32,000 bases of DNA from Candidatus Saccharimonadota bacterium (GCA_025349965.1 CP075337.1:180001-212000), one strand, 5' to 3'; shown: positions 2,884 to 26,789, counted from the first letter of the stretch. A program made the numbers and translations. The notes: generated by a model not told the origin, from the sequence alone.

Positions 2884-2884
2884 C

Positions 2885-3283
2885 TTAAAGGCCCTCCGGT
2901 GATACATACGTGGCATGTGTTACTGTCTTCTGCGGTGAGCCATAGCGAATACTTGCGGTGATACGGTTGAGGTTAGGAAGTGACATATTTGGGCAGTCTC
3001 TTGTGACAGTTATCATTCCATCGCCAATGCCGTTGCCGAGATTTATCGATGGCTGATAGAAGAGCGTCGCAGGGGTGCACGGCGCAACCGCGCTGGTTGT
3101 GTAGCTTCTGACTCTAGAATACGCCATCGAGCCCACCTCCGCTTCCATTCGTGTGTTGCCACTCTCTGTAATGATTGCTATGTACAGTTGGTATCCAGTT
3201 GCAAGCGCCATGGCGGCAATAAAGAGTGTAATAAGGAGTTCGATAGCGGTAAAGCCTGGGTGAGTGGAATTATTGCGCATCAT
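2885..3283 (-). CDS. prepilin-type N-terminal cleavage/methylation domain protein (minor pilin-like)
   Basis: 132 aa with the signal THPG|FTAIELLITLFIAAMALA (Glu +5). Its start shares a 4-nt ATGA overlap with the upstream gene's stop. Confidence 0.8.
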   Translation of the reverse strand: MMRNNSTHPGFTAIELLITLFIAAMALATGYQLYIAIITESGNTRMEAEVGSMAYSRVRSYTTSAVAPCTPATLFYQPSINLGNGIGDGMITVTRDCPNMSLPNLNRITASIRYGSPQKTVTHATYVSPEGL

Positions 3284-8731: not shown

Positions 8732-9964
8732 ATGTCTATAGCTGAACAGTATCCTACGGGCAATCTTGAAGATTCGTCCCACTCGGCACGCGAGCCGGAA
8801 AAAACCTCCACAAGAGAGTATGAACTTCATCATGTCGAAACCCACGATCCGTATATATCGGACGAAGTTACTTTTCGTCGCATTAATGATCAGCTCGAAA
8901 TCCTTGCGAACATGGGGCTCTACGGCGATTCTTCAATCGACATTGCTCGTAAGCGAAAGAAGATAGATAGAGAGAACCCTGCTACCGCAGCACTCATTAC
9001 TGAGCTCCCTTCTTTTAGCGATTGGCTTGATTTGGTGCCAACTGCAGCAGCACTCGACTCACTGTATGACCCACATAAGGCGACACTCGCCGACGGTAAG
9101 CCGCTTGACCCAAAACTTTCGGAATGGTTTTGCAATATTGTTGATGGTAGGGGTATTCGTAGCCGAGCGGAAGTTGTACGTGGAATTATGATGACAGAAA
9201 CGGCAGCCTTGGATAATCGAGCACAGTGGCTTAGCTTGGCGTCTGGTGCTGCTCAGCCAGTAATTAAGACCGCAAAGCTATTAACTGAGCAAGGCACTCT
9301 TACCCCAGCCGTGACACTCGTAGATGTCGATGCGAACTCGCTTAAATTAGCCAGGCAGTATGCCGACGAAGCTGGTATTGGTGACCATCTAAAGACGCGA
9401 AGAATGAACATTTTACAGCCTCGCGGAATTGATCGGGACGAGAGGTCTTATGACACGCTTGAATCAACAGGTGGTCGCCTGAGCGCAGCCGCTCTTTCAA
9501 TCCGAGGTCTCATGGGCATGGTGCGTGATGGCAATAAGCTACCAAGAAATTTTTACGATACAGTTGAGGTTGTGGGGTTGACCGAGTATCTTCTTGAGGG
9601 AAATTGGGGAAAAACAAAAGCTGAGAGGCAAAGGGGCAAAAACACACCCGAGCTTGAAGATGAAAAATATGTCTACGATCAAGTGATTGAAGAGAAAGAT
9701 AAGCCGTTTGCCGGCGCGCGAGATTTTCTGCAGAATGCATACAGGCTTGTGAAGCCGGGGGGATCGCTCATTGTCGGGAATATGCTTGATACACATCCGC
9801 AACTTGGATTCACGCTGAATGTTATTCAGTGGCCACACATTCAGCCGCGTTCGATTGATGAAATGATGGGTATTTTTGACAGGGCGGAGCTTGATGGTAA
9901 GACGGATGTTTACACGACACCGGATGGAGCGTATGCTATCTATAGGATAACAAAAGGGAGATAG
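8732..9964 (+). CDS. class I SAM-dependent methyltransferase-like protein with an N-terminal extension
   Basis: 410 aa. Rossmann-type blocks are WLSLASGAAQP (degenerate motif I), VTLVDVDANSLKLA (acidic end of beta2) and LVKPGGSLIVGN. The stop TAG at 9962-9964 abuts the kinase ATG at 9965. The function is inferred from motifs only. Confidence 0.55.
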   Translation: MSIAEQYPTGNLEDSSHSAREPEKTSTREYELHHVETHDPYISDEVTFRRINDQLEILANMGLYGDSSIDIARKRKKIDRENPATAALITELPSFSDWLDLVPTAAALDSLYDPHKATLADGKPLDPKLSEWFCNIVDGRGIRSRAEVVRGIMMTETAALDNRAQWLSLASGAAQPVIKTAKLLTEQGTLTPAVTLVDVDANSLKLARQYADEAGIGDHLKTRRMNILQPRGIDRDERSYDTLESTGGRLSAAALSIRGLMGMVRDGNKLPRNFYDTVEVVGLTEYLLEGNWGKTKAERQRGKNTPELEDEKYVYDQVIEEKDKPFAGARDFLQNAYRLVKPGGSLIVGNMLDTHPQLGFTLNVIQWPHIQPRSIDEMMGIFDRAELDGKTDVYTTPDGAYAIYRITKGR

Positions 9965-12115
9965 ATGGAGATATACGGACTGCTGGTGGTGAGTGTCCTG
10001 ACGATATCGCTGGGTGTGGCATCACTTTTTCAGCATACGCGTGACCATACTGTTCATTATTTTTTTGCAACTGTTCTAGGTACATCTTTATGGGCGCTTG
10101 GCATTGCACTCTTTCTTTCTACTTCAAGTATAGAGATCGCAACCTTTGCTGCATCTCTATACTATAGCGCCGCTGCACTCATCGCAGTTGCTACGGCGCT
10201 TATAGGTCTTTCGATTGGTAGGCGAAAGCCGGTCTCGCTGCGGACTGTTATTTCACTTTCAATCCCACCTATTGCGATTATTGCAACCCTATTCTTAGCC
10301 CCGAAGATTCTTTTTACAGAGGTTGTTTTATCGGATAATGGAGCGAATACAATCACGCTTGCTTCGTGGCCGTATATGATATATGGCATCTATTTTCTTT
10401 CCTATTTTAGTATCGGAGTGTATGGGATGTTCGCACAGATGCGACGTACTCGGAAAAAGCAGCAACTCTATGTACGCCTTCAATATATAACGTTCGCGTA
10501 CTTGATTTCGGGAATTATTGGCGCATGGTTTAATCTTATTCTTCCATGGACGGGCGACTATAACTATATATGGATAGGACCACTTGGCCTGCTTTTATTT
10601 GTCCCAATTGTCTACATCGCAATTGCTAAGTATGGGCTATTTGACGTTCGCTCCGCTGTACTTCGTGCCGCTACATACACACTTGCGTTAGCTGCGCTTG
10701 CGGGCGTGTATTACCTTCTTGCTTACGCAGTCTCGGTAGTGGTGTTTAGAGGTTCTGTGAGTAACGAGATGAGCATCAGTCCAATCAATGTGCTCCTTGC
10801 GCTTGTCCTTGCATTCCTCTTCCAGCCTTTTAAGCGATTCTTCGATAAGTTGACGAACAGTATATTTTATAGAAGCATGTACAGTACCGACGAGCTTTAT
10901 TCTCAGCTCAATACTCTCATTCGCTCAACCCCTCCGCTTCGTGCGCTTTTGCAAGGTTCGTCAGAGCTAATTAGCAAGGCACTGAAGGCCGAGTTTGTTA
11001 CCTTCTTTATTTATCGCGAGGATGGTCGACCAACTATGGTCGTAGGGAGCGAGGGTCATAAGAAGATTGCTCCTGCCGATGTACATATGTTTGATGATTT
11101 GAGGGAGCCGCTCTATATTGAGGATTCTCGAATGAGCTCTCCAATGTATAGACTTTTTGTGAGTCACAGGCTATCGATTGTGGTGCCGTTATATCACGCA
11201 GACCAGGTAGTGGGTGTTATGTGTTTGGGTGATCATCGAACGTCGCGTTATTCAAACAGGGATTTGCGCGTGCTGCGTGTAATAGCGGGCGAGCTCGTAG
11301 TTGGTATTCAGAATGCACTTGCAATTCAGGAGATTAAAAGTCTCAACGATAACCTTAAGCAGCGAATTGATGCAGCAACCAAAGAGTTACGCCGCAATAA
11401 TACGCAGTTGCGCCGCCTCGATAAGACCAAAGATGAATTCATCAGCATGGCAAGTCATCAACTCCGTACGCCGCTCACGAGCATCAAGGGCTATATTTCT
11501 ATGCTTATTGATGGTGATCTTGGTAAGGTGACGACCCAACAGCGTGAGGTGCTCGAGGAGGCCTTTTCAAGTAGTGAACGCATGGTGCACCTTATTGGAG
11601 ACTTCTTGAATGTTTCACGTTTACAGACGGGAAAGTTTGTCATTGAAAAGCGGACCACAGATTTCGCTACTCTCGTAGAGAGTGAAGTAAATGCACTTCG
11701 TCAGAGCGCTGAAAGTCGAGAGCTCGAGCTCCAGTATGCGAAGCCGAAAAACATCCCTACGCTTGAGCTTGACGCGGATAAATTCCGCCAGGTAATTATG
11801 AACTTTATTGATAACGCGTTGTATTACTCAAAGAGCGGCAGTGCTATTAAAATTACCCTAAAAAAGACGGCGGATGCGGTTGAGTTTAGAGTGAAGGATA
11901 CAGGTATTGGTGTACCAGAGTCTGAACAGGCGGGTCTTTTTGGTAAGTTTTTCCGCGCATCAAATGCGCGTCGTACGCGTCCGGACGGCACAGGTGTAGG
12001 TCTTTTTCTTGCTAAGAAGGTTGTAGCAGATCATCACGGTGAAATTATTTTTGAATCAAAAGAAGGAAAGGGAAGTACGTTTGGTTTTCGTCTCCCCCTT
12101 CCTAAAGCTGATTAA
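9965..12115 (+). CDS. membrane sensor histidine kinase (multi-TM N-terminus, GAF-like domain, HisKA, HATPase_c)
   Basis: 716 aa. About 7-8 hydrophobic segments lie in the first ~290 aa. Motifs are the H-box SHQLRTPLTSIKGY, N-box NFIDNALYYS, G1 DTGIGVPE and G2 GTGVGL. Confidence 0.85.
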   Translation: MEIYGLLVVSVLTISLGVASLFQHTRDHTVHYFFATVLGTSLWALGIALFLSTSSIEIATFAASLYYSAAALIAVATALIGLSIGRRKPVSLRTVISLSIPPIAIIATLFLAPKILFTEVVLSDNGANTITLASWPYMIYGIYFLSYFSIGVYGMFAQMRRTRKKQQLYVRLQYITFAYLISGIIGAWFNLILPWTGDYNYIWIGPLGLLLFVPIVYIAIAKYGLFDVRSAVLRAATYTLALAALAGVYYLLAYAVSVVVFRGSVSNEMSISPINVLLALVLAFLFQPFKRFFDKLTNSIFYRSMYSTDELYSQLNTLIRSTPPLRALLQGSSELISKALKAEFVTFFIYREDGRPTMVVGSEGHKKIAPADVHMFDDLREPLYIEDSRMSSPMYRLFVSHRLSIVVPLYHADQVVGVMCLGDHRTSRYSNRDLRVLRVIAGELVVGIQNALAIQEIKSLNDNLKQRIDAATKELRRNNTQLRRLDKTKDEFISMASHQLRTPLTSIKGYISMLIDGDLGKVTTQQREVLEEAFSSSERMVHLIGDFLNVSRLQTGKFVIEKRTTDFATLVESEVNALRQSAESRELELQYAKPKNIPTLELDADKFRQVIMNFIDNALYYSKSGSAIKITLKKTADAVEFRVKDTGIGVPESEQAGLFGKFFRASNARRTRPDGTGVGLFLAKKVVADHHGEIIFESKEGKGSTFGFRLPLPKAD

Positions 12116-12456: not shown

Positions 12457-14007
12457 CTAGAGGCCAAGTGCACGACGGCTTGCAACGTAGTATACGGTGC
12501 TTGCAATCATTGCGCCAAGACCAACGATAGCGGCAACATCACCTGCACCAGTTTGTGGAAGCTCACCTGGAGTCTCCGGAGTTACTGGTGGAACTTCCTT
12601 ACAGTCTTCAAGGTTCTTTGAGTGCTTCTTAGCATCAAAGGCAGCTTCCTTGATGGTAATGATCGTCTTGCTGTTAAGCTCACAGACAACGATTTCGCCT
12701 GGCTGCTTACAGTCTTCAAGGTTCTTTGAGTGCTTCTTAGCATCAAAGTCGGCTTCCTTGATTGTGATGATCTTCTTTGTTGTAAGGTCACAAACAGTGA
12801 TCTTCTTACAGTCAGCGAGGTTCTTTGAGTGCTTCTTAGCATCAAAGTCCTTTTCGTTGATTGTGATGATCTTGTTTGTCGCTAGTTCACAAACTTGAAT
12901 CTTTACTTCAGGAGGGCAGTCCTTTTCAACTGTTACAGTTGCCTGATCTTCCTTTTTGTAACCGCCAGTAGAAACGCTACCGGTGTTTGTAAGTGTATTT
13001 GTACCACACTTAAGGTCTTTCTTGTCAGCAACCTTGGCGCTGAGCTTTGCCCATGCATTTGCCTTTGGTGCGTAAGAGCCCACATTAACGCCAACACCGT
13101 TTGTAAGTGCTAGGTCGCTTGTTGGCTTAACCTTTGGGTTACTTGCGTTACCCCAGTTTGCAGAGTTTGCTACATAGGTAAGTCCTGTAGGGAGCTTATC
13201 ACGGAAAGTAACATCGTTCTGGTTTGTCTGTCCTACGTTCTGGTATGAAAGAAGGAAGTCGACAGTTTCACCTGGTTGCGCCTTGTAGTTCTTTTCCCAC
13301 TTATCAGCACCCTTCTTACTTACAAACTTTGTAAGGTTGAAGTCGCTTTGCTTTTCAAATTGTGGCTTTACCTTGAAGGTAACATAGCCAGCGTACTGGA
13401 AACATCCAGGAATTTTACCGTCAAGCTTGTTATACCCAAGCTTCGCACCAGCACTTGTGAAAATGCTTTCAGGAAGCGTAGTACCAGCAGCGCCAAAGGC
13501 GTTGTTTTCATACTTTAGGCTGTTCTTGATGTAGGCAAGGTTAAAGTTTTTGTCGCTATTAAAGTTTGCGTGGTCGTATACTTCAACAGGCTTTGCGTTA
13601 CTTGAGTTAACAAATCCTTGTACCTGAATTGACTTTGCAGTTGTTGTAGGAAGGTTAAACTTCGCAGTTACGTTTTCTGCAACGAGGTTGAGGTTAGCAG
13701 CGGCGTTATTGTGTACATACATACGCACAAAGTATTCCTTGCCTTCCTTAACGGTCATGTCGTCGTACCAAACGTTGCTTGAGCCAACTTCGCGGATGCC
13801 CACAAAGTTACGTTCGTCGCCAATGTTTGGATTGTTTGTGATTGAGTTGAATGTTACATATGTAGCAGGTTTCTCAATTGTGAATGTCGCACGGCTTGGG
13901 CCCCAAGCAAACACAGCTGCCGGAACAATAATTGCTGCAGCAATAATCGCTACGATTGCGCTGAAGCGTCGAGGTGCGCGACGGATGAGAGATGTGAGTG
14001 ATTTCAT
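12457..14007 (-). CDS. LPXTG-anchored cell-surface protein with three Cys-bracketed repeats
   Basis: The ORF is open to a TTG at 14049. The ATG at 14007 (MKSLTSLIRRAPRRFSAIVAIIAAAIIVPAAVFA) has a GGAGA SD. The C-terminus is LPQTG plus a hydrophobic stretch plus SRRALGL, the classic sortase sorting signal. Confidence 0.8.
   Translation of the reverse strand: MKSLTSLIRRAPRRFSAIVAIIAAAIIVPAAVFAWGPSRATFTIEKPATYVTFNSITNNPNIGDERNFVGIREVGSSNVWYDDMTVKEGKEYFVRMYVHNNAAANLNLVAENVTAKFNLPTTTAKSIQVQGFVNSSNAKPVEVYDHANFNSDKNFNLAYIKNSLKYENNAFGAAGTTLPESIFTSAGAKLGYNKLDGKIPGCFQYAGYVTFKVKPQFEKQSDFNLTKFVSKKGADKWEKNYKAQPGETVDFLLSYQNVGQTNQNDVTFRDKLPTGLTYVANSANWGNASNPKVKPTSDLALTNGVGVNVGSYAPKANAWAKLSAKVADKKDLKCGTNTLTNTGSVSTGGYKKEDQATVTVEKDCPPEVKIQVCELATNKIITINEKDFDAKKHSKNLADCKKITVCDLTTKKIITIKEADFDAKKHSKNLEDCKQPGEIVVCELNSKTIITIKEAAFDAKKHSKNLEDCKEVPPVTPETPGELPQTGAGDVAAIVGLGAMIASTVYYVASRRALGL
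12598..12897 (-). repeat. three tandem coding repeats (108-nt and 99-nt periods)
   Basis: cttacagtcttcaaggttctttgagtgcttcttagcatcaaag recurs at 12598, 12706 and, slightly diverged, 12805. Each unit encodes VC(E/D)L...K.IITI.E..FDAKKHSKNL.DCK. Confidence 0.8.
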
Positions 14008-14072
14008 ATCTTTTCTCCTTTTCTTGATTCGTCTCGCAGATAGAATCAAATTAATTTATTGCGTAAATAATA

Positions 14073-14088
14073 AGACATACATATGTCT
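14073..14088. promoter_or_regulatory. palindromic operator-like site upstream of the LPXTG gene
   Basis: AGACATA-ca-TATGTCT, with 7-bp arms, lies 66-81 nt upstream of the ATG at 14007. Confidence 0.25.
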
Positions 14089-14130
14089 AGTATATGAGCG
14101 GAAGTGATGTCGCCGAATTGTTAATTACGC

Positions 14131-14161
14131 AACAAATCAGATTATTACAATGTGCACGTCT
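14131..14161. repeat. left copy of an imperfect inverted repeat bracketing the high-GC gene
   Basis: AACAAATCAGATTATTACAatGTGCAcGTCT. Its partner is the reverse complement of 15730-15758. Confidence 0.75.
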
Positions 14162-14249
14162 GAGCCATTGGGCTCACAAAACTACTCTACGGCGAATTGT
14201 ATATACAACTCAAGCTGGAGTGGGTTTGGAACGGGAGAATAGGGGTAGG

Positions 14250-14288
14250 GTGAGTGGGTGATCTGCGAAAGGCAGACCACCCACTCAC
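14250..14288 (-). terminator. long GC-rich hairpin 9 nt after the stop of the high-GC gene (terminator candidate with no U-tract)
   Basis: GTGAGTGGGTG (14250-14260) pairs perfectly with CACCCACTCAC (14278-14288). An inner TCTGC/GCAGA stem has a gaaag loop. The sequence downstream on the minus strand is C/T-rich rather than a T-run. Confidence 0.5.
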
Positions 14289-14297
14289 GGTGGATAG

Positions 14298-15512
14298 TTA
14301 GCAGCTGACACCCGGCATCGGCACGCATCCGGTCTCCGGCGCCTTCGGCTCAGGAGCCTTGGGTTCGGGAGCCGGCGGCGGCGTCGGGTCGGGCTTGGCT
14401 GCGGGCGGCGGTGCCACGGGGGGTGGCGGGTTCTCGCGAGGAGTGCTCGGCGGCTGCGTCGGAGTCGTCGGAGCACCTGGGCCGGGATCGTTGTTCTGGC
14501 CACCACCATCAGGGGCATTGCCCTGCTGGTACGGATCCTGTGACGGGTCCTTCGGCTCGACAACCGGTCCACAGTCCACGGTGCAAGGAGGGGGTCCACA
14601 GTCCACCGTACAAGGCGGCGGGCCGCAGTTCTCCGTGCACTCGGGGTTGGGCTTCGGCGACTTCGGCGTTTCGGATGGCTTCGGCTTTTCGGGCTCAACG
14701 CAGTGGAAGAGCTCGATGCGCCGGTCCTCAGCGTTGAAGCCGATCTTGATCAGGCATTTGTCGTTCTTGTCCGTGAGGACGCGAACCCATGCCGGCTTCG
14801 ACTCCTGATCCTTTGCCTGCTGCACGGACGGAAGACCCTTGCTGGGGTCCCACGTACCGGGCTGCTCCCAGTTACGGACAGAGGTGAGCGAATGCTTTCC
14901 CTCATCGTTGAATCGAAGCAGTACCGTGTTTGCCCAAGAGGCGTACATCTGGTACTGCTCGGTCACGATCCGCTTCTGGACCTCGTCTTTGTCATTGACG
15001 AGGTTCTTGACGAAGGAGTTCAGGCCGTTTGCCTCGATGTCCTTCTGGACTTCGCTGATCCAACCCTTGTTGGATTCCGCTCCCGGGATGCTCTTGTCAT
15101 CCCAGAGTTGCATCTCCTTGAGGTTCATCTCCAGGAACGTGGGGTTGCCACAGTTCTCGGCGAGAATTTCCTTGGTGACTGCAACGTCGTCCTTTCCGGT
15201 AAACGGAATGGAGACGGCGGTGCCGAACTGACGCTTTTCAGCGTTGCCTGCCTTCACGGTGCGAAGCGAGTGATCGACGAACGTGTCCGTCGTGCACAGC
15301 GCCTCTTCCGGAATTGCGTCCTTCTTCGGGTTGAACTCCACGGTGTGAAGTCCCTTGCTGTCAGCGGCGAAAGCCGGCTGGGCAGTCAGGGGGTTTCCGA
15401 AGATGGCCATACCTCCGAAGACGGCACCAGCGACGAGCGCCAATGCCAATGGAATCGCCCAGAGGAGGCGGTTATTGCGCCGCCTCTTCTTGTTATCTGC
15501 TTCCAAGTTCAT
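14298..15512 (-). CDS. secreted hypothetical protein with a Pro-rich, Cys-containing C-terminal tail (high-GC, foreign composition)
   Basis: I prefer the ATG at 15512 because AAGGAG lies 7 nt upstream. That gives 404 aa beginning MNLEADNKKRRRNNRLLWAIPLALALVAGAVFGGMAIFGNPLTAQPAFA|AD. The chosen frame has strongly G/C-biased third positions. I recognise no protein family. Confidence 0.7.
   Translation of the reverse strand: MNLEADNKKRRRNNRLLWAIPLALALVAGAVFGGMAIFGNPLTAQPAFAADSKGLHTVEFNPKKDAIPEEALCTTDTFVDHSLRTVKAGNAEKRQFGTAVSIPFTGKDDVAVTKEILAENCGNPTFLEMNLKEMQLWDDKSIPGAESNKGWISEVQKDIEANGLNSFVKNLVNDKDEVQKRIVTEQYQMYASWANTVLLRFNDEGKHSLTSVRNWEQPGTWDPSKGLPSVQQAKDQESKPAWVRVLTDKNDKCLIKIGFNAEDRRIELFHCVEPEKPKPSETPKSPKPNPECTENCGPPPCTVDCGPPPCTVDCGPVVEPKDPSQDPYQQGNAPDGGGQNNDPGPGAPTTPTQPPSTPRENPPPPVAPPPAAKPDPTPPPAPEPKAPEPKAPETGCVPMPGVSC
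14566..14619 (-). repeat. 27-nt tandem duplication encoding CGPPPCTVD x2
   Basis: ggtccacagtccacggtgcaaggaggg (14566-14592) is followed by ggtccacagtccaccgtacaaggcggc (14593-14619). A degenerate third unit (CTENCGPPP) lies on the higher-coordinate side. Confidence 0.7.
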
Positions 15513-15611
15513 TTTCTTACTCCTTTCCCCCTCGGGGGTGTTTGGTGCGCGTCGGCGCATCTAATTGATATTTAATTAAATGCGTTTCCGCAGCTGCCCC
15601 CACGGGTTCGA

Positions 15612-15657
15612 GAGCAGCAAGTTTGCTCGCTTTGATAAACGGGCTAACTTGCTACTC
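15612..15657 (-). promoter_or_regulatory. 12-bp hairpin in the long upstream region of the high-GC secreted-protein gene
   Basis: The minus strand reads GAGTAGCAAGTT-22 nt-AACTTGCTGCTC: 12 pairs including one G-U. It lies 100-145 nt upstream of the ATG at 15512. Confidence 0.35.
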
Positions 15658-15729
15658 CCGATCGGAGTAAAAAAGCTACTAAACTATTCTCCAGTGCGTG
15701 CTAAATATACTAAAAAGTAAGCACATTCA

Positions 15730-15758
15730 AGACATGCACTGTAATAATCTGATTTGTT
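15730..15758. repeat. right copy of the inverted repeat bracketing the high-GC gene
   Basis: The reverse complement reads AACAAATCAGATTATTACA--GTGCAtGTCT. Against the left copy, 28 of 29 aligned positions match, with one 2-nt indel. Confidence 0.75.
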
Positions 15759-15825
15759 AACGACCTCCTCACTCTAGCTGGCCTCACACCTGCTGGTGAG
15801 TGATGTTATTAATGTATCACAAAAA

Positions 15826-15834
15826 TGCTAAAAT
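15826..15834 (+). promoter_or_regulatory. extended -10-like box in the AT-rich island spacer
   Basis: TGcTAAAAT. No obvious gene or terminator lies directly downstream before the stronger promoter at 15962. Confidence 0.3.
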
Positions 15835-15961
15835 GTCAATCCTTTATACAATAATATACAAAAAGCACAAGCTTCATCGGGGGGCGCTAGTGAGTGGTTT
15901 TTTGGCGCTACGCTATATGTAGTAGTGTATAGTCTGCTGGTGAAGCAATTTTACAAAATAT

Positions 15962-15990
15962 TTGACTTAATACGTCAAACGGGGTATAGT
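15962..15990 (+). promoter_or_regulatory. strong sigma70-like promoter for the 130-aa high-GC gene
   Basis: TTGACT (15962-15967), 17 nt, then TATAGT (15985-15990). The -35 is part of the palindrome TTGACttaatacGTCAA. Confidence 0.6.
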
Positions 15991-16003
15991 GCAGGATAAG
16001 TGT

Positions 16004-16045
16004 GAACCGCATGGTGGCGGTTCGTTTGTTTTAACCGGAACAAAC
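16004..16045 (+). promoter_or_regulatory. terminator-like hairpin plus a U-tract-sequestering hairpin in the 5' leader (attenuator candidate)
   Basis: GAACCGC-atggtg-GCGGTTC is followed by GTTTGTTTT. GTTTGTT (16024-16030) can alternatively pair with AACAAAC (16039-16045). Confidence 0.35.
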
Positions 16046-16105
16046 TCCCATTTCCAAGGGGCACTTACCCAGGGACCGTCTGGGTATTGATAGATAGGAG
16101 AAGGC

Positions 16106-16498
16106 ATGTCCGTTTCGGGAATGCAGGCGTGGCTCAATGAGTCCGGCGTCGGCAACCAGATCTTCGCTGAGGTTGATTCCTCGGAGGAGGGCTCGAAGCT
16201 CACTCCCACGTGGAGGGAGCATCGCGAGCACTTCAACCGACTCATCGATGACAAGAAGAGTATCGGCGAGATCCTCGGCGAGAAGACCAAGGGCAACGAC
16301 CTCATGGCGCTCATGCTCGTGATGGTGCTGATCGAAGACCGTGGCGTGGCGATTTCCGGCATTCCGTCGGTCGTTCGTCGTCGCTGCGAGCTCATCAGGG
16401 GCTACCTGCTGCACACCGGTGATGGAGGCCGCGCGCTTCCGCTCCGTGGTGACACGCAGTCCATCACCGAACGCCGGCGCGAGCTGGTCAACGCCTAA
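16106..16498 (+). CDS. hypothetical 130-aa cytoplasmic protein (high-GC, foreign composition)
   Basis: An AGGAGAAGG SD sits directly upstream. 24 of the first 30 codons end in G or C, which supports this frame over the overlapping antisense ORFs. I recognise no family. Confidence 0.65.
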   Translation: MSVSGMQAWLNESGVGNQIFAEVDSSEEGSKLTPTWREHREHFNRLIDDKKSIGEILGEKTKGNDLMALMLVMVLIEDRGVAISGIPSVVRRRCELIRGYLLHTGDGGRALPLRGDTQSITERRRELVNA

Positions 16499-16563
16499 CG
16501 AGTCGAGAGACTCACGTACTTGTAACCGCAAGTACATCTGCCGTCTGGCGGCCTGGGATTTTT

Positions 16564-16591
16564 CCCGGGCCCCGGGCGGCTCTTTCTTTTT
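16564..16591 (+). terminator. weak terminator candidate after the 130-aa gene
   Basis: CCCGG-gcc-CCGGG is a short GC stem. It is followed at a distance by tctttcttttt. Confidence 0.3.
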
Positions 16592-16626
16592 AGGGGTGTT
16601 TACCTCTAGTCAAGAGCGCATCTTTA

Positions 16627-16678: not shown

Positions 16679-16753
16679 GGTCTCATCGTCTAACGGTTAG
16701 GACACCAGGTTTTCATCCTGGCAATCGGAGTTCGATTCTCCGTGAGATCACCA
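16679..16753 (+). tRNA. tRNA-Glu (anticodon TTC), CCA encoded
   Basis: Hand-folded cloverleaf. Acceptor ggtctca/tgagatc, anticodon stem ccagg/cctgg with loop ttTTCat, T arm cggag-ttcgatt-ctccg. Total 75 nt. Confidence 0.85.
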
Positions 16754-16854: not shown

Positions 16855-18267
16855 ATGGCAATTACATTCAAACGAACAAAAATCCTCGCGACACTTGGTC
16901 CATCAACAAGCACCCCTGAGATGGTCGAGGAACTCCTCGACGCCGGCGTAAATGGTGTTCGTCTTAATTTTAGTCATGGTGATCACGCTGAGCGCACCGA
17001 TCAAATTCAGTGGATTCGTGAAGCCAGCAAGAAGGTAGGAAAGCCAGTGGCAATTCTCCAAGACCTTCAGGGGCCAAAGATTCGTCTTGGCATGCTTAAT
17101 GATAAAGTTGAAGTAAAGACAGGTGATGAAATTATTCTTGATTATGCCGCGGAACACGACGGTCTGACGTTCCCTGTGCAATATAACCTTGCTGAAAAAG
17201 TGAAGGTGGGTGAGCCAATTTATATCTTTGATGGTAAAGTGCGCACAACAGTTGTTGAAATCACCTCTGATACCGCTATCAAGCTTCGCGTTGAAAATAA
17301 TGGCGTACTTATGAGCAAGAAGGGGATTAACCTTCCGGATACTGACTTTGCCGGTGATATCCTTACCCCTAAGGATATGGCAGATATCGAGTATGGTCTT
17401 ACGCAAGATATTGATTACGTTGCATTGAGCTTTGTGCAGAGTCCGGAAGACATTCACAACCTTCGGCAAATTCTTGTCGCTGGTGGCTCAAAGGCACAGA
17501 TTGTCGCAAAGATTGAAACAAAGGCGGCCATTAAGGATGATGTACTTGAAGAAATCGTTAAGGCAACAGATGGTATTATGGTGGCACGTGGCGACCTTGC
17601 AGTAGAGGCGGGTGCAGAAATTGTGCCGATTGTGCAACGTCGGTTGATTGCGCTTTGTCGCAAGCACGGTAAATTGAGCATCGTTGCTACGCAAATGATG
17701 GCAAGCATGGTCGAGAGTCCAGAGCCAACTCGTGCTGAGGTAGGTGACGTTGCGAATGCTGTTATTCAAGGCGCAGATGCCGTTATGCTTTCAGACGAGA
17801 CAGCTAATGGTGAGTATCCACTTGAGACCGTTGCAGCAATGAAGAAGGTGATTCTTTACACTCAGGATAACGCCCCCGTAAGTACTATCGAGGACACTGT
17901 AACTGAAGATCATCAGCTCGACGCTATTAGTGTTGCGGCCGTATCTCTTGCGGAGCAACTTAATGTAGATGTTATTATTGCCGAAACACTCTCGGGCCGT
18001 ACTGCGGCAACAATTGCTGCAAATCGTCCGAATCTCCCAATTATTAGCGTAACGAGTTCCGAAAAGACAGCGCAGCAACTCGGTCTTAGCTATGCTAACC
18101 GTAGTTACGTTCGTCCGGATTCTCCAGATGCCGGTATCGATCTTTTCAAAGAGTTAAAAGAGACTGGCTTCTTCGGCGAAGGTCGCAACACAGTTATTAT
18201 CGTGAGCGGGCAAGAGCCTGGTGTGGAAGGAACTACTGACACGATTAAAGTTCGCGTGCTAGAATAA
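16855..18267 (+). CDS. pyk: pyruvate kinase
   Basis: 470 aa with the motifs KILATLGPS, RLNFSHGDH, MVARGDLAVE and MLSDETANG. Confidence 0.9.
   Translation: MAITFKRTKILATLGPSTSTPEMVEELLDAGVNGVRLNFSHGDHAERTDQIQWIREASKKVGKPVAILQDLQGPKIRLGMLNDKVEVKTGDEIILDYAAEHDGLTFPVQYNLAEKVKVGEPIYIFDGKVRTTVVEITSDTAIKLRVENNGVLMSKKGINLPDTDFAGDILTPKDMADIEYGLTQDIDYVALSFVQSPEDIHNLRQILVAGGSKAQIVAKIETKAAIKDDVLEEIVKATDGIMVARGDLAVEAGAEIVPIVQRRLIALCRKHGKLSIVATQMMASMVESPEPTRAEVGDVANAVIQGADAVMLSDETANGEYPLETVAAMKKVILYTQDNAPVSTIEDTVTEDHQLDAISVAAVSLAEQLNVDVIIAETLSGRTAATIAANRPNLPIISVTSSEKTAQQLGLSYANRSYVRPDSPDAGIDLFKELKETGFFGEGRNTVIIVSGQEPGVEGTTDTIKVRVLE
18257..18265 (+). promoter_or_regulatory. extended -10 box overlapping the pyk stop codon (possible internal promoter for pgk)
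   Basis: TGcTAGAAT, whose final T is the first base of the pyk TAA stop. Confidence 0.35.
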
Positions 18268-23645: not shown

Positions 23646-24809
23646 ATGAGAGTATACAGTAGAAATAATAATAAGTTCACCTTCAAGCTTGCCCTTGGTG
23701 TTGCCGTGGGATTGTTAAGTATTATAGGTATCGCTCAGTTTGTAAATAATACAACACAAACAGCACTTGCTCAGCAGCAAGGTGCACGTCTTATTACGCT
23801 CTACGACAGGGGTGAGACAACTTCTTTCATGACCGACAAGGCGACGATTGGCGAAGCGCTTGAGGCGGCCAGTATTCAGCTTGATGCTCGCGATGCGGTT
23901 GAGCCGGCACGTGATGAGAAGCTTGTCGCACCTGATTATCAGGTGAATGTCTATCGAGCACGTCCGGTAACGGTCATCGAGGGTGCGCAGCGCCAAAAAG
24001 TCTTTACGCCCTACCAGTCGGCCGAGCGAATTGTACGTGATCTAGGCATTGCACTTTATCCTGAAGACCATACAGACGTAACTCGTTCGGAGGATGTTCT
24101 TGGACAGGGCTCTGGCTTACAGCTAAGAATTATTCGCGCGGTACCATTTGAACTGACGCTGTATGGCCAGACAAACGCCGCTCGTACTCAGGCGAAGACA
24201 GTTGGTGAAATGTTGAAAGAGAAAGGTGTGAAGCTCGGTCAAGATGATCGTGTTTCTGTTCCGCTAGAAACTCCAATCACGGAAGGTATGCAGCTTCGTG
24301 TGTGGCGCGAGGGCAAGCAAACGATTACGGTTGATGAAGAGGTTGATTTCGCAACCGAGAAGATTCAGGATGCCGACCGCGAAGTTGGCTATAAGGAAGT
24401 AAAGACACCCGGTGAAAAGGGTGAGCGTTCTGTGACGTACGAAGTGGTTATTCAGGACGGTAAAGAGGTGAGTCGTACGGAAATTGCCAGCGTGACAAAG
24501 AAAGAGTCAAAGAAGCAAGTTGAAGTTGTCGGAACGAAGATGAAGAACAGTTTTAGTGGTAGTTTTGCCGAAGCGCTTGCACGCCTTCGTAGCTGTGAAG
24601 GAAGTTATACTTCTAATACCGGAAATGGGTATTATGGCGCATATCAGTATGACCTTAGGACATGGGGAAATTATAAGGGATATGCCAACGCATCACTTGC
24701 GCCTCCTCAGGTGCAGGATGAAAAGGCGTGGATTACTTATCAAGCTCGTGGCTGGCAGCCATGGCCAAGCTGTAGAATCTCGCAAGGTTTGCAGGATATC
24801 TACCGATAA
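23646..24809 (+). CDS. DUF348-G5 protein with a C-terminal Rpf-type transglycosylase-like domain (RpfB-like)
   Basis: 387 aa. It has an N-terminal membrane anchor and repeated DUF348-like segments. G5-like motifs are TPGEKGERSVTYEVVIQDGKEV. The C-terminus SCEGSYTSNTGNGYYGAYQYDLRTW...GWQPWPSC resembles Rpf domains. Confidence 0.8.
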   Translation: MRVYSRNNNKFTFKLALGVAVGLLSIIGIAQFVNNTTQTALAQQQGARLITLYDRGETTSFMTDKATIGEALEAASIQLDARDAVEPARDEKLVAPDYQVNVYRARPVTVIEGAQRQKVFTPYQSAERIVRDLGIALYPEDHTDVTRSEDVLGQGSGLQLRIIRAVPFELTLYGQTNAARTQAKTVGEMLKEKGVKLGQDDRVSVPLETPITEGMQLRVWREGKQTITVDEEVDFATEKIQDADREVGYKEVKTPGEKGERSVTYEVVIQDGKEVSRTEIASVTKKESKKQVEVVGTKMKNSFSGSFAEALARLRSCEGSYTSNTGNGYYGAYQYDLRTWGNYKGYANASLAPPQVQDEKAWITYQARGWQPWPSCRISQGLQDIYR

Positions 24810-25594
24810 TGGCGGGTCCTAAAAAATCACTCGGCCAGCATTGGCTCAAAGACCGTGAAATATTAGCGGAAATTGCCAATGAAGTGACACTTACAAAGAG
24901 TGATACTGTCCTTGAGATTGGTCCGGGTCTTGGAACATTAACCAGTGAACTACTGCGCCGTTCTGGTAGGGTGGTTGCGGTTGAGATTGACCAAGACTTA
25001 GCACGCAAGCTTCCGGGGCAATTTCCGGGTACGTCACTAGAAGTAGTAAACCAAGATATTCTCACCTATGATTTAACGCAACTTCCAAAAGGGTATAGCG
25101 TTGTCGCAAATGTGCCGTACTATATTACATCGAAAATCGTTCAGTATTTAGTCACTTCCGATAATCCACCGCGTGAAATTGTCTTATTGATTCAAAAGGA
25201 AGTCGCAGAGCGTATTGTTGCCGAGCCGGGTGACATGAGTATTTTGGCGATTAGTGCTCAAATATACGCGACTGCACGTCTTGGCATTGAAGTGCCGGCT
25301 GAATACTTTACACCACCGCCAAAGGTGGACAGTCAAGTGGTAATTCTTACTATGCGCACAGAGCCTCTTGTGAAGAAAGAAGATGAACGGCTTTTCTTTA
25401 GGGTTGTTAAGGCTGGATTTGCGGCAAAGCGCAAGAAACTGCGCAGTAGTCTTGCTGGCGGGCTTCACTTAAGTAAGCCTGACGTAGAAGACCTCCTGGG
25501 TAAAGCTGGTATTTCACCGGAAAAACGCGCAGAAGACCTATCTATTGCCGAGTGGCTTCAGCTGATGGCGGTTGTTGCTCCTGCGCTCTCGTAA
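24809..25594 (+). CDS. rsmA: 16S rRNA (adenine1518/1519-N6)-dimethyltransferase
   Basis: 261 aa with the motifs SLGQHWL, EIGPGLGTLT and ANVPYYITS. The start overlaps the upstream stop by 1 nt (TAATG). Confidence 0.9.
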   Translation: MAGPKKSLGQHWLKDREILAEIANEVTLTKSDTVLEIGPGLGTLTSELLRRSGRVVAVEIDQDLARKLPGQFPGTSLEVVNQDILTYDLTQLPKGYSVVANVPYYITSKIVQYLVTSDNPPREIVLLIQKEVAERIVAEPGDMSILAISAQIYATARLGIEVPAEYFTPPPKVDSQVVILTMRTEPLVKKEDERLFFRVVKAGFAAKRKKLRSSLAGGLHLSKPDVEDLLGKAGISPEKRAEDLSIAEWLQLMAVVAPALS

Positions 25595-25597
25595 AAG

Positions 25598-25606
25598 TGC
25601 TACAAT
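25598..25606 (+). promoter_or_regulatory. extended -10 box for the second DUF348-G5 gene
   Basis: TGcTACAAT, followed by 7 nt and then the ATG at 25614. Confidence 0.45.
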
Positions 25607-25613
25607 ATACCTA

Positions 25614-26789
25614 ATGGTGTGGCGTTTTATTTTAGTCTTAGGGCTTACCTTTGTCTCAGTACTTGGTGCTGTGGATATTGTGTCGGCAAGTGAGCAGACG
25701 GGACGCCTTATTACGGTACACGATAGAGGTCTTAAGACGAGTTTTGTCTCGCATGAGAAAACAATTGGTGAAGCACTCAAGGCGCAATCAATTACATTAG
25801 ATGCGTTTGATGCCACGGAACCCTCAGTGCAAGAAGAGATGGTTGCACCCGACTATCAGGTGAATATTTACAGAGCCCGGCCGGTGACGGTGGTGGATGG
25901 TGCAACACGCACTAAGATTATGACGCCGTATCAATCAATTGAACGGATTGTGAAAAGCGCTGATATTACACTCTATCCTGAGGATAAAACATCACTTGCA
26001 CCTTCTCGGGATTTTAATGTCGACGGCGCAGGGCTTCTCCTTACTATTGACCGGGCGGTAGATTTCACGCTCGATTTGTATGGAAAAAAGCAGGCGGCTC
26101 GTACGCACAAGGCAACGGTTGGCGCAATGCTTGACGAAAAAGGTGTAAAACTTGGCGCGAATGACCGTGTATCGGTTGCGCTTGAAACACCTATTACGTA
26201 CGGCATGGAGGTGCGTGTTTGGCGCGAAGGTAAGCAGACTATTGCTGAAGACCAGCCAATTGGATTTACAACTGAGCTTGTCTATGACGCTGATCGTCCA
26301 GTTGGGTATCGCGCGATTCAAACTCCGGGCGTCGAAGGTGTTCGCTCGGTAACCTATGAAGTTGAGATTAAAGAAGGTAAAGAGATTTCCAAAAAGAAGA
26401 TTGCGGAGATTGTTACCGCTGAGCCGAAACGGCAGCAGCTCGCAATTGGAATTAAGGGACTTGAGAATGGCTTAACCCGTAATAAGGGCGCGCTCCACTT
26501 TAAGGATAGTAAGGGCGTTGTGCATCGTGAAACATATTACGATCTTGATATGGGTGTTGTGATGGGAAGCTGTGGTCAAGGTGGTCGCTATTCGGTCCGC
26601 TTTGATGGTATGAAGATTGATGCCGAGGGGTACATTCTTATTGCTGCCAACTATGCGCGCTATCCGAAGTGTTCAATTGTTGAAACGAGCGCGGGGCCGG
26701 GGCGTGTGTATGATACTGGCGGCTTTGTTAAAAACCATCCTGATGGCTTTGACTTGGCGACGGATTGGACGAATAGTAACGGCCGGTAA
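25614..26789 (+). CDS. DUF348-G5 protein with a C-terminal 3D/DPBB-like (YabE/MltA-type) domain
   Basis: The ORF is open from a TTG at 25572, overlapping rsmA. I prefer the ATG at 25614 (MVWRFILVLGLTFVSVLGA...) because of the adjacent extended -10 box, but the longer form would match the paralog's N-terminal length better. The C-terminus is CSIVETSAGPGRVYDTGGFVKNHPDGFDLATDW. Confidence 0.75.
   Translation: MVWRFILVLGLTFVSVLGAVDIVSASEQTGRLITVHDRGLKTSFVSHEKTIGEALKAQSITLDAFDATEPSVQEEMVAPDYQVNIYRARPVTVVDGATRTKIMTPYQSIERIVKSADITLYPEDKTSLAPSRDFNVDGAGLLLTIDRAVDFTLDLYGKKQAARTHKATVGAMLDEKGVKLGANDRVSVALETPITYGMEVRVWREGKQTIAEDQPIGFTTELVYDADRPVGYRAIQTPGVEGVRSVTYEVEIKEGKEISKKKIAEIVTAEPKRQQLAIGIKGLENGLTRNKGALHFKDSKGVVHRETYYDLDMGVVMGSCGQGGRYSVRFDGMKIDAEGYILIAANYARYPKCSIVETSAGPGRVYDTGGFVKNHPDGFDLATDWTNSNGR

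Follow-up and report, generated by a model that had tools for sequence, protein, structure and literature searches.

The 32-kb stretch of DNA analysed here (hereafter the window) comes from Saccharibacteria TM7i, whose closed genome was assembled from PacBio and Illumina data (PMC9894109). This identification agrees with the initial annotation, which had described the rest of the window as Saccharibacteria-type. Two ORFs make up the island that is the subject of this study, one of 404 aa on the minus strand (14298-15512) and one of 130 aa on the plus strand (16106-16498), and both gene models hold, matching the NCBI annotations KI440_01045 and KI440_01050, respectively. The abrupt switch in composition noticed earlier was confirmed by windowed GC and by GC at each codon position. 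Recomputing the G+C hand counts gave exactly the same values (48/60 at 14401-14460, 15/60 at 14041-14100 and 29/60 at 17041-17100), and the GC3 counts over the first 30 codons were likewise reproduced (24/30 for the gene at 16106 and 15/30 for pyk). Averaged over 300-nt windows, GC is about 0.41 at 14000-14299, climbs to 0.63-0.71 over 14150-14749, remains at or above 0.54 until about 15650, drops to 0.40-0.46 across the spacer between the two genes, reaches 0.60-0.62 at 16100-16549 and then returns to 0.43-0.46, while no 1-kb window outside the island exceeds a GC of 0.52 anywhere in the 32 kb. The 404-aa gene has GC1/2/3 values of.61/.47/.76, and the 130-aa gene has.63/.42/.80. Compared with the backbone GC3 of 0.44±0.03 (maximum 0.51, for the 22 ORFs of at least 150 aa within the window), this places the island at z = 11.7 (about 12) and bears out the difference in codon usage suggested earlier.

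On its left side, the island is flanked by the gene of a DUF11/CLIPPER surface protein (12457-14049, minus strand), the LPXTG gene of the initial annotation, with a backbone-like GC3 of 0.45. Its product matches Pfam DUF11 at 8e-9 and, weakly, the LPXTG anchor, and it carries an LPQTG sortase signal together with a TM segment and RRALGL. This neighbour is shared by L001, L004, L007-L012, L019 and L020 (L numbers denote loci of relatives). Upstream of this gene lies the first copy of a conserved non-coding block (14109-14160, minus strand) with the palindromic core AATCTGATT, which contains invariant columns in an alignment of eight genomes. The 16-mer GYAAYRATCYGATTTG of the block was found in 21 of 25 loci, and a 19-mer of it is identical in L008 and L012. 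As judged from this conservation, copy 1 is probably an operator or leader element. A second copy (15727-15760, plus strand) is located in the spacer, inverted with respect to the first and directed toward the 130-aa gene. It coincides with the inverted repeat I2 (22 nt, 95 % complementary), and the number of matches expected by chance is zero. The two-copy layout also occurs in L018, and the spacers of L017, L024 and L025 hold one copy each. The spacer itself (15513-16105, GC about 0.41) contains divergent promoter-like sites in the promoter scan, one on the minus strand at 15839-15811 and one on the plus strand at 15962-15990, the latter being the TTGACT-17-TATAGT promoter already pointed out. 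A GC-rich hairpin (inverted repeat I6, 14250-14288, minus strand; 17-nt arms, 94 % complementary, 5-nt loop) directly follows the 404-aa gene and is likely its terminator; hairpins are found at the equivalent position in the aligned relatives. On the other side, the terminator scan placed a terminator-like hairpin with a T-run 3' of the 130-aa gene (16567-16592, plus strand). It is followed by tRNA-Glu(ttc) at 16679-16753 (plus strand; ARAGORN and Rfam), whose presence had been recognised before, and by the pyruvate kinase gene pyk (16855-18267, plus strand; backbone-like GC3 of 0.41, assigned from the ORF list and from Pfam matches in relatives), then pgk and tpi.

The 404-aa ORF is preceded by a GGAG ribosome-binding site 8 nt upstream and begins with a signal or anchor sequence. 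Together with a head of about 220 aa containing four invariant Cys, this sequence forms the first of two segments treated below as replaceable cassettes (14697-15512, minus strand; GC1/2/3 of.57/.38/.77, family alignment A1). In the AF2 model, pLDDT is above 90 over about residues 56-275, and the head has no match in Pfam, NCBIfam, PHROG, PDB or BFVD. The initial annotation had recognised neither protein of the island, which still stands for the 404-aa protein with regard to known families and no longer does for the 130-aa protein, for which seven relatives were found. The remaining part of the 404-aa protein (residues 273-404, 14298-14696, minus strand, GC3 0.73) is a constant tail or stalk with CTENCGPPPCTVDCGPPPCTVDCGP, a Pro-rich stretch and the C-terminal APETGCVPMPGVSC. 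Its architecture, as read from the sequence, comprises a (C-x-x-x-C-x-PPP)n hinge rich in disulfides, a stalk rich in Pro and, at the C-terminus, a Cys loop. The hinge is encoded by three tandem 27-nt units (C-x-x-x-C-G-P-P-P; 14566-14646, minus strand), which form the direct-repeat family D2 (85 % and 67 % identical to the reference copy) and differ in number between relatives. By motif the protein is not a sortase substrate: APETG is followed by only 9 residues, so that there is no complete LPXTG sorting signal, and the protein ends in APETGCVPMPGVSC without a hydrophobic segment. The signal or anchor sequence and the Cys/Pro tail suggest that it is secreted or wall-associated.

The second segment (16106-16498, plus strand) encodes an all-alpha cytoplasmic protein of 130 aa, whose AF2 model has a pLDDT of 79 and gave no fold match. 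Its seven relatives share 38-52 % identity with it and have GC3 values of.62-.75. The relative in L017 lies directly upstream of pyk (this is the sole fetched locus of the family reaching that far), and those in L024 and L025 are divergent from the partner gene. At this locus, most relatives additionally encode a membrane partner with a coiled coil, which has been lost in TM7i, and a small cytoplasmic protein.

Homologs of both proteins were searched for among 5.8 billion proteins (with single sequences and profiles), 1.84 billion cluster representatives and 185,579 species genomes, and further in JGI metagenomes, plasmids, phages and viral contigs, a collection that does not include the genome of the host strain J1. 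Relatives were found solely in Saccharibacteria-type contexts, and none in the actinobacterial proteins, plasmids, phages or viral contigs searched. Those of the head come from 10 genome loci and 6 metagenome loci, all of them Saccharibacteria-type with mid-GC flanks. Across relatives, the genes recur in the order HisKA (histidine kinase) - DUF11 - [island] - tRNA-Glu - pyk - pgk - tpi, with both flanks conserved where the contig is long enough (the window, L001, L008-L012, L017, L020 and L022), while the L004 and L005 contigs extend to the DUF11/HisKA side only. A scan of 11 loci placed tRNA-Glu close to the island in 9 of them, the two exceptions being short contigs. The comparison of synteny proposed earlier thus places both families at one shared locus, between HisKA/DUF11 and tRNA-Glu/pyk. 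This recurrence also bears on whether the island could result from reads of the Leucobacter host mis-joined into the TM7i contig, which the co-culture of TM7i with Leucobacter and the abruptness of the switch might suggest. The assembly is a closed one from PacBio and Illumina data, more than 15 assemblies made independently from other samples have the same architecture and GC steps, and the junctions are spanned by conserved sequence (tail, spacer and cis-element), so that an artefact has a negligible probability and a chimeric assembly is excluded in practice.

Comparison of TM7i with its relatives shows where the island changes. With L020, whose backbone is 73-76 % identical, similarity is lost over the head (14587-15681) and the 130-aa gene (16102-16533) and retained in the AT-rich spacer, the tail and the flanks, which indicates that lateral replacement of the ORFs is real. 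Neither L017 nor L020 has nucleotide similarity to TM7i over 14587-15681. The spacer is 73-75 % identical to that of L017 and L020, which is backbone level, and pyk is 76-77 % identical to theirs at the nucleotide level. The tail is conserved at 65 % with L017 and at about 75 % with L020 (up to window position 14586). TM7i and L017, with a pyk identity of 91 %, have non-homologous heads on a common tail, and across relatives at least five unrelated heads occur with this one tail. In L020, the slot of the 130-aa gene holds an unrelated 130-aa gene, and at least two unrelated 130-aa proteins share this slot across relatives. L008 and L012 are closer still (95 % amino-acid identity for pyk, 81-88 % nucleotide identity in the flanks), yet over 9408-10708 they have only two matches of about 75 nt and their heads are just 44 % identical. 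Sharp mosaic breakpoints are seen in three pairs (TM7i/L020, TM7i/L017 and L008/L012). An identical allele in two divergent backbones, which would be a direct sign of recent exchange, was not found among the loci, L004 and L026 representing one lineage. With regard to mobile elements, there is no integrase or recombinase ORF between 12 kb and 19 kb, and the 3' 23-mer of tRNA-Glu occurs only once in the window with up to 3 mismatches allowed, leaving no att-like repeat; tRNA-Glu is a flank marker here and not an attachment site.

The initial annotation had explained the island by transfer from host to epibiont, each gene being re-fitted with a low-GC promoter. According to this explanation, TM7i would recently have gained both genes from a high-GC actinobacterial host (Leucobacter or similar) and equipped them with native low-GC promoters. 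The host of TM7i is indeed an actinobacterium (PMC9894109). In composition and codon-box profile, the island matches a genome of about 60 % GC, and the GC-rich ORFs stand out against their AT-rich promoters. However, no actinobacterial, plasmid or phage homolog appeared in any database searched, and both families are restricted to Saccharibacteria, at one locus, with the GC excess throughout. Relatives share the spacer and its promoters in conserved form, so that these were not re-fitted. The amino acids of the head are Lys-rich and backbone-like (GARP 20 %, FYMINK 27 %, K 9.3 %, R 3.6 % in TM7i; K exceeds R in 11 of 13 heads), unlike those of a high-GC proteome (Arg above Lys, high GARP); this holds for the head only, the 130-aa protein being Arg-rich (K 3.9, R 10.1). 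For an actinobacterium of about 67-70 % GC, GC3 is expected to be above the 0.76-0.80 found here. A recent gain from the host is hence very improbable. What stands of the proposed foreign-looking ORFs in native regulatory DNA is that replacement was lateral and the promoters are native; what falls is the recent event in TM7i and the actinobacterial donor.

The excess in GC is shared by most of the family. Among the loci with homologs of the 404-aa protein, 14 of the 17 examined are clearly GC-rich inside flanks of 42-52 % GC, one takes an intermediate position and two lack the enrichment. For 11 of the 12 genome loci, the GC3 of the main gene is 0.66-0.86, compared with 0.39-0.52 for the backbone (z of 3.4-11.7). 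The pooled heads have GC1/2/3 values of.58/.44/.78, against.55/.42/.46 for the backbone, and the excess by position is +0.32 at GC3, +0.03 at GC1 and +0.02 at GC2. It had been stated earlier that relatives in low-GC genomes with the same GC excess would mean selection on amino-acid content; such relatives were indeed found, and the inference is wrong since it is GC3, and not GC2, that is in excess. Fourfold-site identity between homologs is 0.30-0.45, where about 0.29 is expected from composition alone, and GC4 is 0.60-0.82 in the homologs and 0.30-0.55 in pyk of the same genomes. As the fourfold sites are nearly saturated, the enrichment is maintained and is not a relic. The unenriched members L016 and L030 (GC3 0.42) sit within enriched clades, which indicates that amelioration does happen where the maintaining force lapses. 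Read from these alignments, the GC excess proves to be a maintained, mostly synonymous property of the cassette pool and not the fading trace of a transfer from a host.

These data also weigh on a single ancient acquisition from a high-GC donor by the ancestor of the clade, followed by vertical inheritance with very slow amelioration or by refreshing from an unsampled high-GC reservoir. In the head family, elevated GC is placed on each of the two deep branches, and GC3 ranges from 0.42 to 0.86, as though the members were at differing stages of amelioration. The island shares its codon-box pattern with a genuine 63 % GC actinophage, so that its codon usage resembles that of a genome of about 60 % GC, which leaves room for an unsampled high-GC source. 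On the other hand, with synonymous sites nearly saturated and GC4 kept around 0.7, neutral amelioration should be finished. All of the roughly 20 loci examined have mid-GC flanks, meaning that no reservoir was sampled, head identity does not track pyk identity, so that inheritance is not simply vertical, and unrelated cassette families at the locus are GC-rich throughout. We regard such an origin as quite unlikely.

As for the nature of the maintaining force, it may perhaps be a GC-favouring fixation bias on the coding sequence, by mRNA/expression selection or by recombination-coupled biased repair. Under the former, the island mRNAs would be highly abundant or long-lived, as for a major surface protein, with G/C-ending codons or the avoidance of AU tracts aiding translation or mRNA stability. 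This would fit the largely synonymous excess, its ending at CDS/terminator boundaries with the spacers remaining AT-rich, and the near absence of A-ending codons (AAA.06, CAA.05, ACA.00). However, pyk, pgk, tpi and eno are at backbone GC3, although glycolytic genes are usually highly expressed in fermenters, and translational selection is thus not supported. The codon-box ranking is identical in the ordinary 63 % GC phage genome and hence not diagnostic, and the bias is common to small cytoplasmic proteins of several unrelated families. Selection for expression appears an unlikely explanation. Recombination-coupled bias, for its part, should enrich the recombination anchors too, and while the tail anchor is GC-rich, the spacer anchor has a GC of about 0.41.

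The reading we favour, and consider reasonably probable, is that Saccharibacteria (Saccharimonadales) have, throughout the lineage, a flexible island of the replacement type between DUF11/LPXTG and tRNA-Glu/pyk, and that exchanged cassettes there provide a surface protein with a variable head and a constant stalk. Two cassettes would be replaceable independently of each other, the head of the 404-aa protein and the 130-aa gene, and TM7i would carry one allele of each. Cassettes would be swapped among Saccharibacteria via homologous recombination, which could be anchored in the conserved tail, in the AT-rich spacer with its regulatory sites and in the tRNA-Glu/pyk flank, after DNA uptake that was probably by natural transformation. 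The outcome would be a diversified surface structure, likely for host contact or for evading phage or host defence. All functions given for the island proteins are putative, no family or structure match tying any of them to adhesion. A more specific and rather doubtful possibility is that of a dedicated, laterally exchanged pool of host-interaction cassettes, in which variable heads on a constant Cys/Pro stalk would be accompanied by small cytoplasmic partners and whose coding GC would be actively held at about 60-65 % (GC3 0.7-0.9) inside genomes of 45-50 % GC by a locus-specific process, either recombination-coupled biased repair or selection linked to the high-GC actinobacterial hosts. If so, the GC contrast would be no scar of a foreign origin but a signature, functional or mechanistic, of the flexible pool.

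The favoured reading, a flexible island with exchanged cassettes, has its closest parallel in the replacement flexible genomic islands described by Lopez-Perez, Martin-Cuadrado and Rodriguez-Valera in 2014, which are exemplified by O-chain, flagellar-glycosylation and S-layer clusters and have peaks of synonymous SNPs at their borders (PMC4033161). Common to both are the fixed position between conserved flanks, the differing or non-homologous content of one apparent kind (exposed structures, which for TM7i are predicted from sequence), the lack of an integrase or transposase, and replacement via homologous recombination in common borders, to which the mosaic breakpoints point here. Unlike those islands, that of TM7i is tiny (1-3 genes, about 2.4 kb), encodes proteins and not glycan pathways, has breakpoints within a gene, giving the constant tail and variable head, and displays a high-GC anomaly that persists among genomes with up to about 24 % divergence between their pyk proteins.

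A signal sequence, a variable N-terminal domain, a proline-rich wall-spanning region and the shuffling of alleles by recombination are also characteristic of pneumococcal PspA and PspC and of streptococcal M proteins, for the genes of which we know of no compositional anomaly. The 404-aa protein resembles these mosaic Gram-positive surface proteins (PMC5850329) in its signal, hypervariable N-terminal domain, conserved Pro-rich C-terminal part and allele shuffling. It differs from them in having no sequence or fold homology (Pfam, NCBIfam, PDB), no choline-binding repeats and no complete LPXTG signal, and in its disulfide-rich hinge. The coiled-coil partner of one relative matches the PspA model at only E=0.0036, scoring 16 bits where the cutoff is 850.

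In Borrelia, the vls surface-protein locus has a G+C well above that of the genome, this anomaly is kept across species despite divergence, and recombination is central to the locus. The TM7i locus is alike in being a high-GC locus of a putative surface protein, with an anomaly conserved while sequences diverge; it differs in that the window has neither a silent-cassette array nor 17-bp direct repeats, in that there is no strong GC skew outside the Pro-codon tail, and in that variation occurs between lineages and not within a clone. With tRNA-linked islands and host-to-symbiont transfers, finally, the island shares an atypical composition, an adjoining tRNA and a content that varies between relatives, whereas it has no integrase, no repeat of the tRNA 3' end and no homologs on the donor side, and occupies one and the same site in essentially every relative.

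The 404-aa and 130-aa ORFs (14298-15512, minus strand, and 16106-16498, plus strand) are identical to KI440_01045 and KI440_01050 on the 780,698-bp contig of Candidatus Saccharibacteria bacterium TM7i, whose closed genome was obtained with PacBio and Illumina sequencing from a co-culture with Leucobacter aridicollis J1 (PMC9894109). The gene models of the initial annotation were confirmed, as was the presence of tRNA-Glu(ttc) at 16679-16753, the LPXTG neighbour, the AT-rich spacer between the two ORFs (15513-16105) and its TTGACT-17-TATAGT site. Recomputing gave the same G+C counts in three 60-mers (48/60, 15/60 and 29/60) and the same number of codons with G/C in third position for the 130-aa gene (24/30) and pyk (15/30). 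Along the window, the G+C content rises up to 0.63-0.71 over 14150-14749, stays at or above 0.54 until approximately 15650, drops to 0.40-0.46 in the spacer, is approximately 0.60 across 16100-16549, and is at backbone level thereafter; no 1-kb window outside the island exceeds 0.52 in the 32 kb. The GC content at third codon positions (GC3) of the backbone is 0.44±0.03 (22 ORFs), from which the island deviates with a z of 11.7. GC1/2/3 are.61/.47/.76 for the 404-aa gene,.57/.38/.77 for its head alone (aa 1-272), and.63/.42/.80 for the 130-aa gene. The anomaly of both genes is far beyond chance, and the comparison of codon positions with the backbone indicates that the excess is mainly synonymous rather than a matter of amino-acid content.

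The 404-aa protein starts with a basic n-region, a hydrophobic segment and an A-F-A/A site, and has a head of ~220 aa with four invariant Cys, a hinge made of three C-G-P-P-P-C-T-V-D repeats (27-nt tandem units, 14566-14646), and a Pro-rich C-terminal part of ~100 aa with a terminal C-x8-C loop. Its APETG motif is no sortase signal, because only 9 residues come after it. The AlphaFold2 model, built on the family alignment, has a pLDDT above 90 for about residues 56-275, with no Foldseek match at E≤1e-3 in the PDB or BFVD, and no model for this protein was found in Pfam, NCBIfam or PHROGs. For the 130-aa protein an all-alpha structure is predicted (pLDDT 79), with no significant fold match when compared with the PDB using Foldseek. 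Assigning a function through homology or fold (Pfam, NCBIfam, Foldseek against the PDB) thus gave nothing significant for either protein.

Single-sequence and profile searches alike returned ~30 relatives of the 404-aa protein among 5.8 billion proteins, and those with a named source are from Saccharibacteria only. When 185,579 species genomes were scanned with a pattern and by tblastn, 10 loci came up, every one from Saccharibacteria or Saccharimonadales, and a metagenome scan added 6 further loci. A phage or plasmid vector was also considered and rejected, with zero matches in plasmids, phages, IMG/VR, PHROGs and BFVD. The 130-aa protein appeared to be an orphan in a word-indexed search, which gave only itself, but an exhaustive phmmer search of 1.84 billion representatives gave 7 relatives (38-52 % identity, 110-157 aa). 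No homolog of it was found amongst the small GC-rich genes of the more distant loci L001, L004, L008-L012 and L020; these genes belong to unrelated families. Wherever the context suffices, both families are found at one place, with a DUF11/CLIPPER LPXTG gene, a 73-aa gene, a HisKA kinase and a response regulator on one flank, and tRNA-Glu, pyk, pgk and tpi on the opposite one. These recurring flanks indicate that the genes are native to a conserved Saccharibacteria locus, for which, as for its GC anomaly, no earlier description was found in the literature. Transfer from an actinobacterial host into TM7i, as had been proposed for both genes, finds no support: the homologs found lie in Saccharibacteria and are themselves mostly GC-rich, an outcome that the initial interpretation had itself named as refuting it.

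The locus is best read as a small replacement-type Saccharibacteria island. It encodes a putative modular surface protein together with a small partner protein, and its synonymous GC enrichment is conserved. The backbone of locus L020 has 73-76 % nucleotide identity to TM7i. Similarity between the two extends across HisKA, DUF11 and the 404-aa gene's tail as far as position 14586, is lost over 14587-15681 (head), reappears at 75 % in the spacer (15682-16101), is lost again over 16102-16533 (130-aa gene), where L020 carries an unrelated 130-aa gene that is likewise GC-rich, and is back from 16534 on, including tRNA-Glu, pyk and pgk. Locus L017, which is closer to TM7i (91 % amino-acid identity for pyk), carries the TM7i-type 13x-aa gene and spacer together with a non-homologous head, followed by the TM7i tail, ending in ...APETGCVPIPGVVSC. 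Loci L008 and L012, with identities of 95 % for pyk and 81-88 % for the flanks, share two ~75-nt matches and nearly no other nucleotide similarity within a 1.3-kb block that takes in the head and the partner gene's 3' half; protein identity there is 44 %, and the sequences become similar again in the tail. Amongst the loci, head identity does not track pyk identity. The L004/L026 pair, whose heads are 95 % identical, was considered as a recent exchange and rejected, since the two are collinear at 89 % throughout and hence represent one lineage. Neither an integrase nor an att-like copy of the tRNA end was found at the island. Replacement flexible genomic islands are known to swap genes for exposed structures via homologous recombination in conserved borders (PMC4033161). 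The TM7i locus follows the same exchange logic, but at the scale of single ORFs and with one border inside a gene. What holds of the initial interpretation is therefore the lateral replacement of ORFs, within native regulatory DNA, and not the actinobacterial host as donor.

The GC excess is shared by most relatives. In 11 of the 12 genome loci the main gene has a GC3 of 0.66-0.86, compared with backbone means of 0.39-0.52 (z 3.4-11.7), and five of the six metagenome loci are also enriched. The unrelated neighbours within the island (coiled-coil partners and small cytoplasmic proteins) have values of 0.57-0.80, and the relatives of the 130-aa protein 0.62-0.75. Identity at fourfold sites between homologs (shared codon families) is 0.30-0.45, close to the ~0.29 predicted from composition alone, so that synonymous sites must be close to saturation. 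GC4 is nonetheless still 0.60-0.82 in each lineage, against 0.30-0.55 for pyk in these genomes; over such a span, the trace of a single transfer evolving neutrally would be expected to have ameliorated. Two homologs, L016 2177-3406 and L030 1175-1864, have a backbone-like GC3 (0.42); they pair together in the family, as sister to its most GC-rich members L013, L014 and L015 (0.74-0.86). Their position indicates that the enriched state is ancestral to the family and able to decay, which implies active maintenance elsewhere. In the L016/L030 lineage the GC excess has lapsed, and perhaps the cassette behaviour as well. Locus L019 is intermediate (0.55).

The maintained synonymous GC excess of the island is a fact, while its causes can be ranked only loosely. 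An origin of the genes in a high-GC proteome is disfavoured by the GC1/2 of the pooled heads,.58/.44 compared with.55/.42 for the backbone, and by 11 of 13 heads having more Lys than Arg. An external high-GC reservoir feeding the island is faced with the fact that no locus was found within high-GC flanks, the 6 metagenome loci included. Against ordinary translational selection is the lack of bias in pyk, pgk, tpi and eno. In the 31 island genes pooled (9,260 codons), GC3 in twofold boxes is raised from 0.46 to 0.78, and that in fourfold boxes from 0.45 to 0.65, with Gly unmoved, Ala nearly so and WWN boxes strongly shifted. This uneven shift was considered as proof of translational selection, but mycobacteriophage L5 (63 % GC), used as control, ranks codon boxes alike; the codon usage of the island is thus simply like that of a ~60 % GC genome, and the reading as codon selection was withdrawn. 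Simple recombination-coupled biased conversion fits poorly with the GC content of the spacer, which is itself a recombination anchor (0.41), although promoter function may constrain this region. For screens of horizontal gene transfer, the island is a caution: a GC3 anomaly with sharp edges at gene boundaries can belong to a native flexible locus, where it is conserved and actively maintained. An anomaly which outlasts synonymous saturation and is lost in one sub-clade is also a natural test bed for biased gene conversion versus synonymous-site selection in bacteria.

A non-coding block of ~50 nt (GACGTGCAC..TTGTAATRATCTGATTTG..TTAACAA), with the palindromic core AATC(W)GATT / AATCWGATT, is conserved upstream of the DUF11/LPXTG gene in ~20 Saccharibacteria loci, mostly as a single copy (amongst others L001 9216-9231, L008 11207-11222, L012 11142-11157 and L020 7243-7258). 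TM7i has one copy at 14109-14160 (minus strand) and a second, inverted one in the spacer at 15727-15760 (plus strand), which is also found in its closest allele L018 (8-23 and 1626-1641); the spacers of L017, L024 and L025 contain one copy each. The two copies explain the inverted repeat around the 404-aa gene (22 nt, 14131-14152 and 15737-15758). Ends of a mobile cassette were considered for this repeat and rejected, as it is a conserved, mostly single-copy cis-element, whose second copy lies in a conserved spacer. The repeat points to co-regulation rather than to the end of a mobile element, and the block probably serves a dimeric regulator as its operator. A 19-mer of the block is shared without mismatch by genomes in which the adjacent proteins have no more than 36-45 % identity. 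In L016, the DUF11 gene begins 20 nt after the homolog, and the element is absent. The spacer is conserved as strongly as the coding backbone; its promoters are therefore native, and not re-fitted to the genes as had been suggested. The spacer and leader were also considered as sites of a riboswitch or other structural RNA, but Rfam matched the tRNA only. A candidate promoter, TTGACA-17-TACATT (15839-15811, minus strand), would, if real, give the 404-aa gene a leader of ~290 nt (15513-15811), holding the second block copy and a 25-nt imperfect hairpin (15608-15661); no Rfam family matches this leader.

The Cys/Pro-rich tail (14298-14696, minus strand), with the motif (C-x-x-N-C-x-PPP)n ... EPKDPSQDP-QGNAP-GGG-N-DPGPG ... 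PSTPR-NP ... APETGC-VPMPGV-C, is a portable module, present on at least five unrelated heads (family proteins P0027, P0028, P0030, P0032 and P0034). We infer that the 404-aa protein is a surface protein with a variable head and a constant stalk, and hypothesize that it acts in host contact or in the evasion of phage or host defences. Family members have two kinds of endings, a Cys loop (…PETGC-x7-9-C) or …GGF/GGW, which suggests two alternative signals for sorting or attachment at the C-terminus. Most relatives carry a co-oriented GC-rich partner gene directly upstream of the main gene (L001 7175-7873, L008 9083-9730, L010 2597-3358, L012 9107-9733, L013 9082-9693, L014 9000-9743, L017 1157-2041 and L020 5107-5985); TM7i lacks this partner, whose product has an N-terminal coiled coil, a Pro/Ala linker and C-terminal TM helices. 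The main protein itself carries a fused multi-TM extension instead in P0003, P0005, P0006 and P0008-P0011. The L015 homolog (8777-10942) bears a fused, polytopic membrane N-domain (~300 aa), and has the highest GC3 of the family (0.86-0.90) in a backbone of ~49 % GC. Between the main operon and tRNA-Glu, different lineages carry genes for small cytoplasmic proteins from several families that are unrelated to one another; in L020 (4132-4524), L001 (5929-6608), L008 (7544-8661) and L009 (7793-8897), all on the minus strand, their GC3 is moderately to strongly raised (0.57-0.69).

Beyond type IV pili, little has been established about the means by which ultrasmall epibionts such as the Saccharibacteria recognize particular host bacteria and stay attached to them. 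The island is a concrete candidate determinant of these processes, given that the head is swapped between lineages while the stalk, the regulatory spacer and the palindromic cis-element are fixed, and that the genes for an LPXTG surface protein and for a two-component system lie next to it. Relatives of TM7i are genetically tractable by natural transformation and TM7i itself is cultivated with its host, so head swaps and knockouts are feasible.

Host attachment in this organism depends on type IV pili, and two other proteins of the window may act as pilus-tip proteins or unusual minor pilins: an RCC1-repeat beta-propeller protein of 497 aa with an N-terminal prepilin-type methylation motif (PF07963; 5285-6778, plus strand), and a 700-aa protein with no Pfam domain and a pilin-like FTLVE start (814-2916, minus strand). 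The DUF11 LPXTG protein (12457-14049, minus strand) contains three tandem repeats of ~31 aa (…KKIITIKEADFDAKKHSKNLEDCK…), around 12582-12845, just ahead of its LPQTG anchor. Two neighbouring paralogs (23646-24809 and 25572-26789, both plus strand) carry DUF348 and G5 domains, to which the former adds a transglycosylase-like domain, resulting in the Rpf-type architecture typical of Actinobacteria and Firmicutes.
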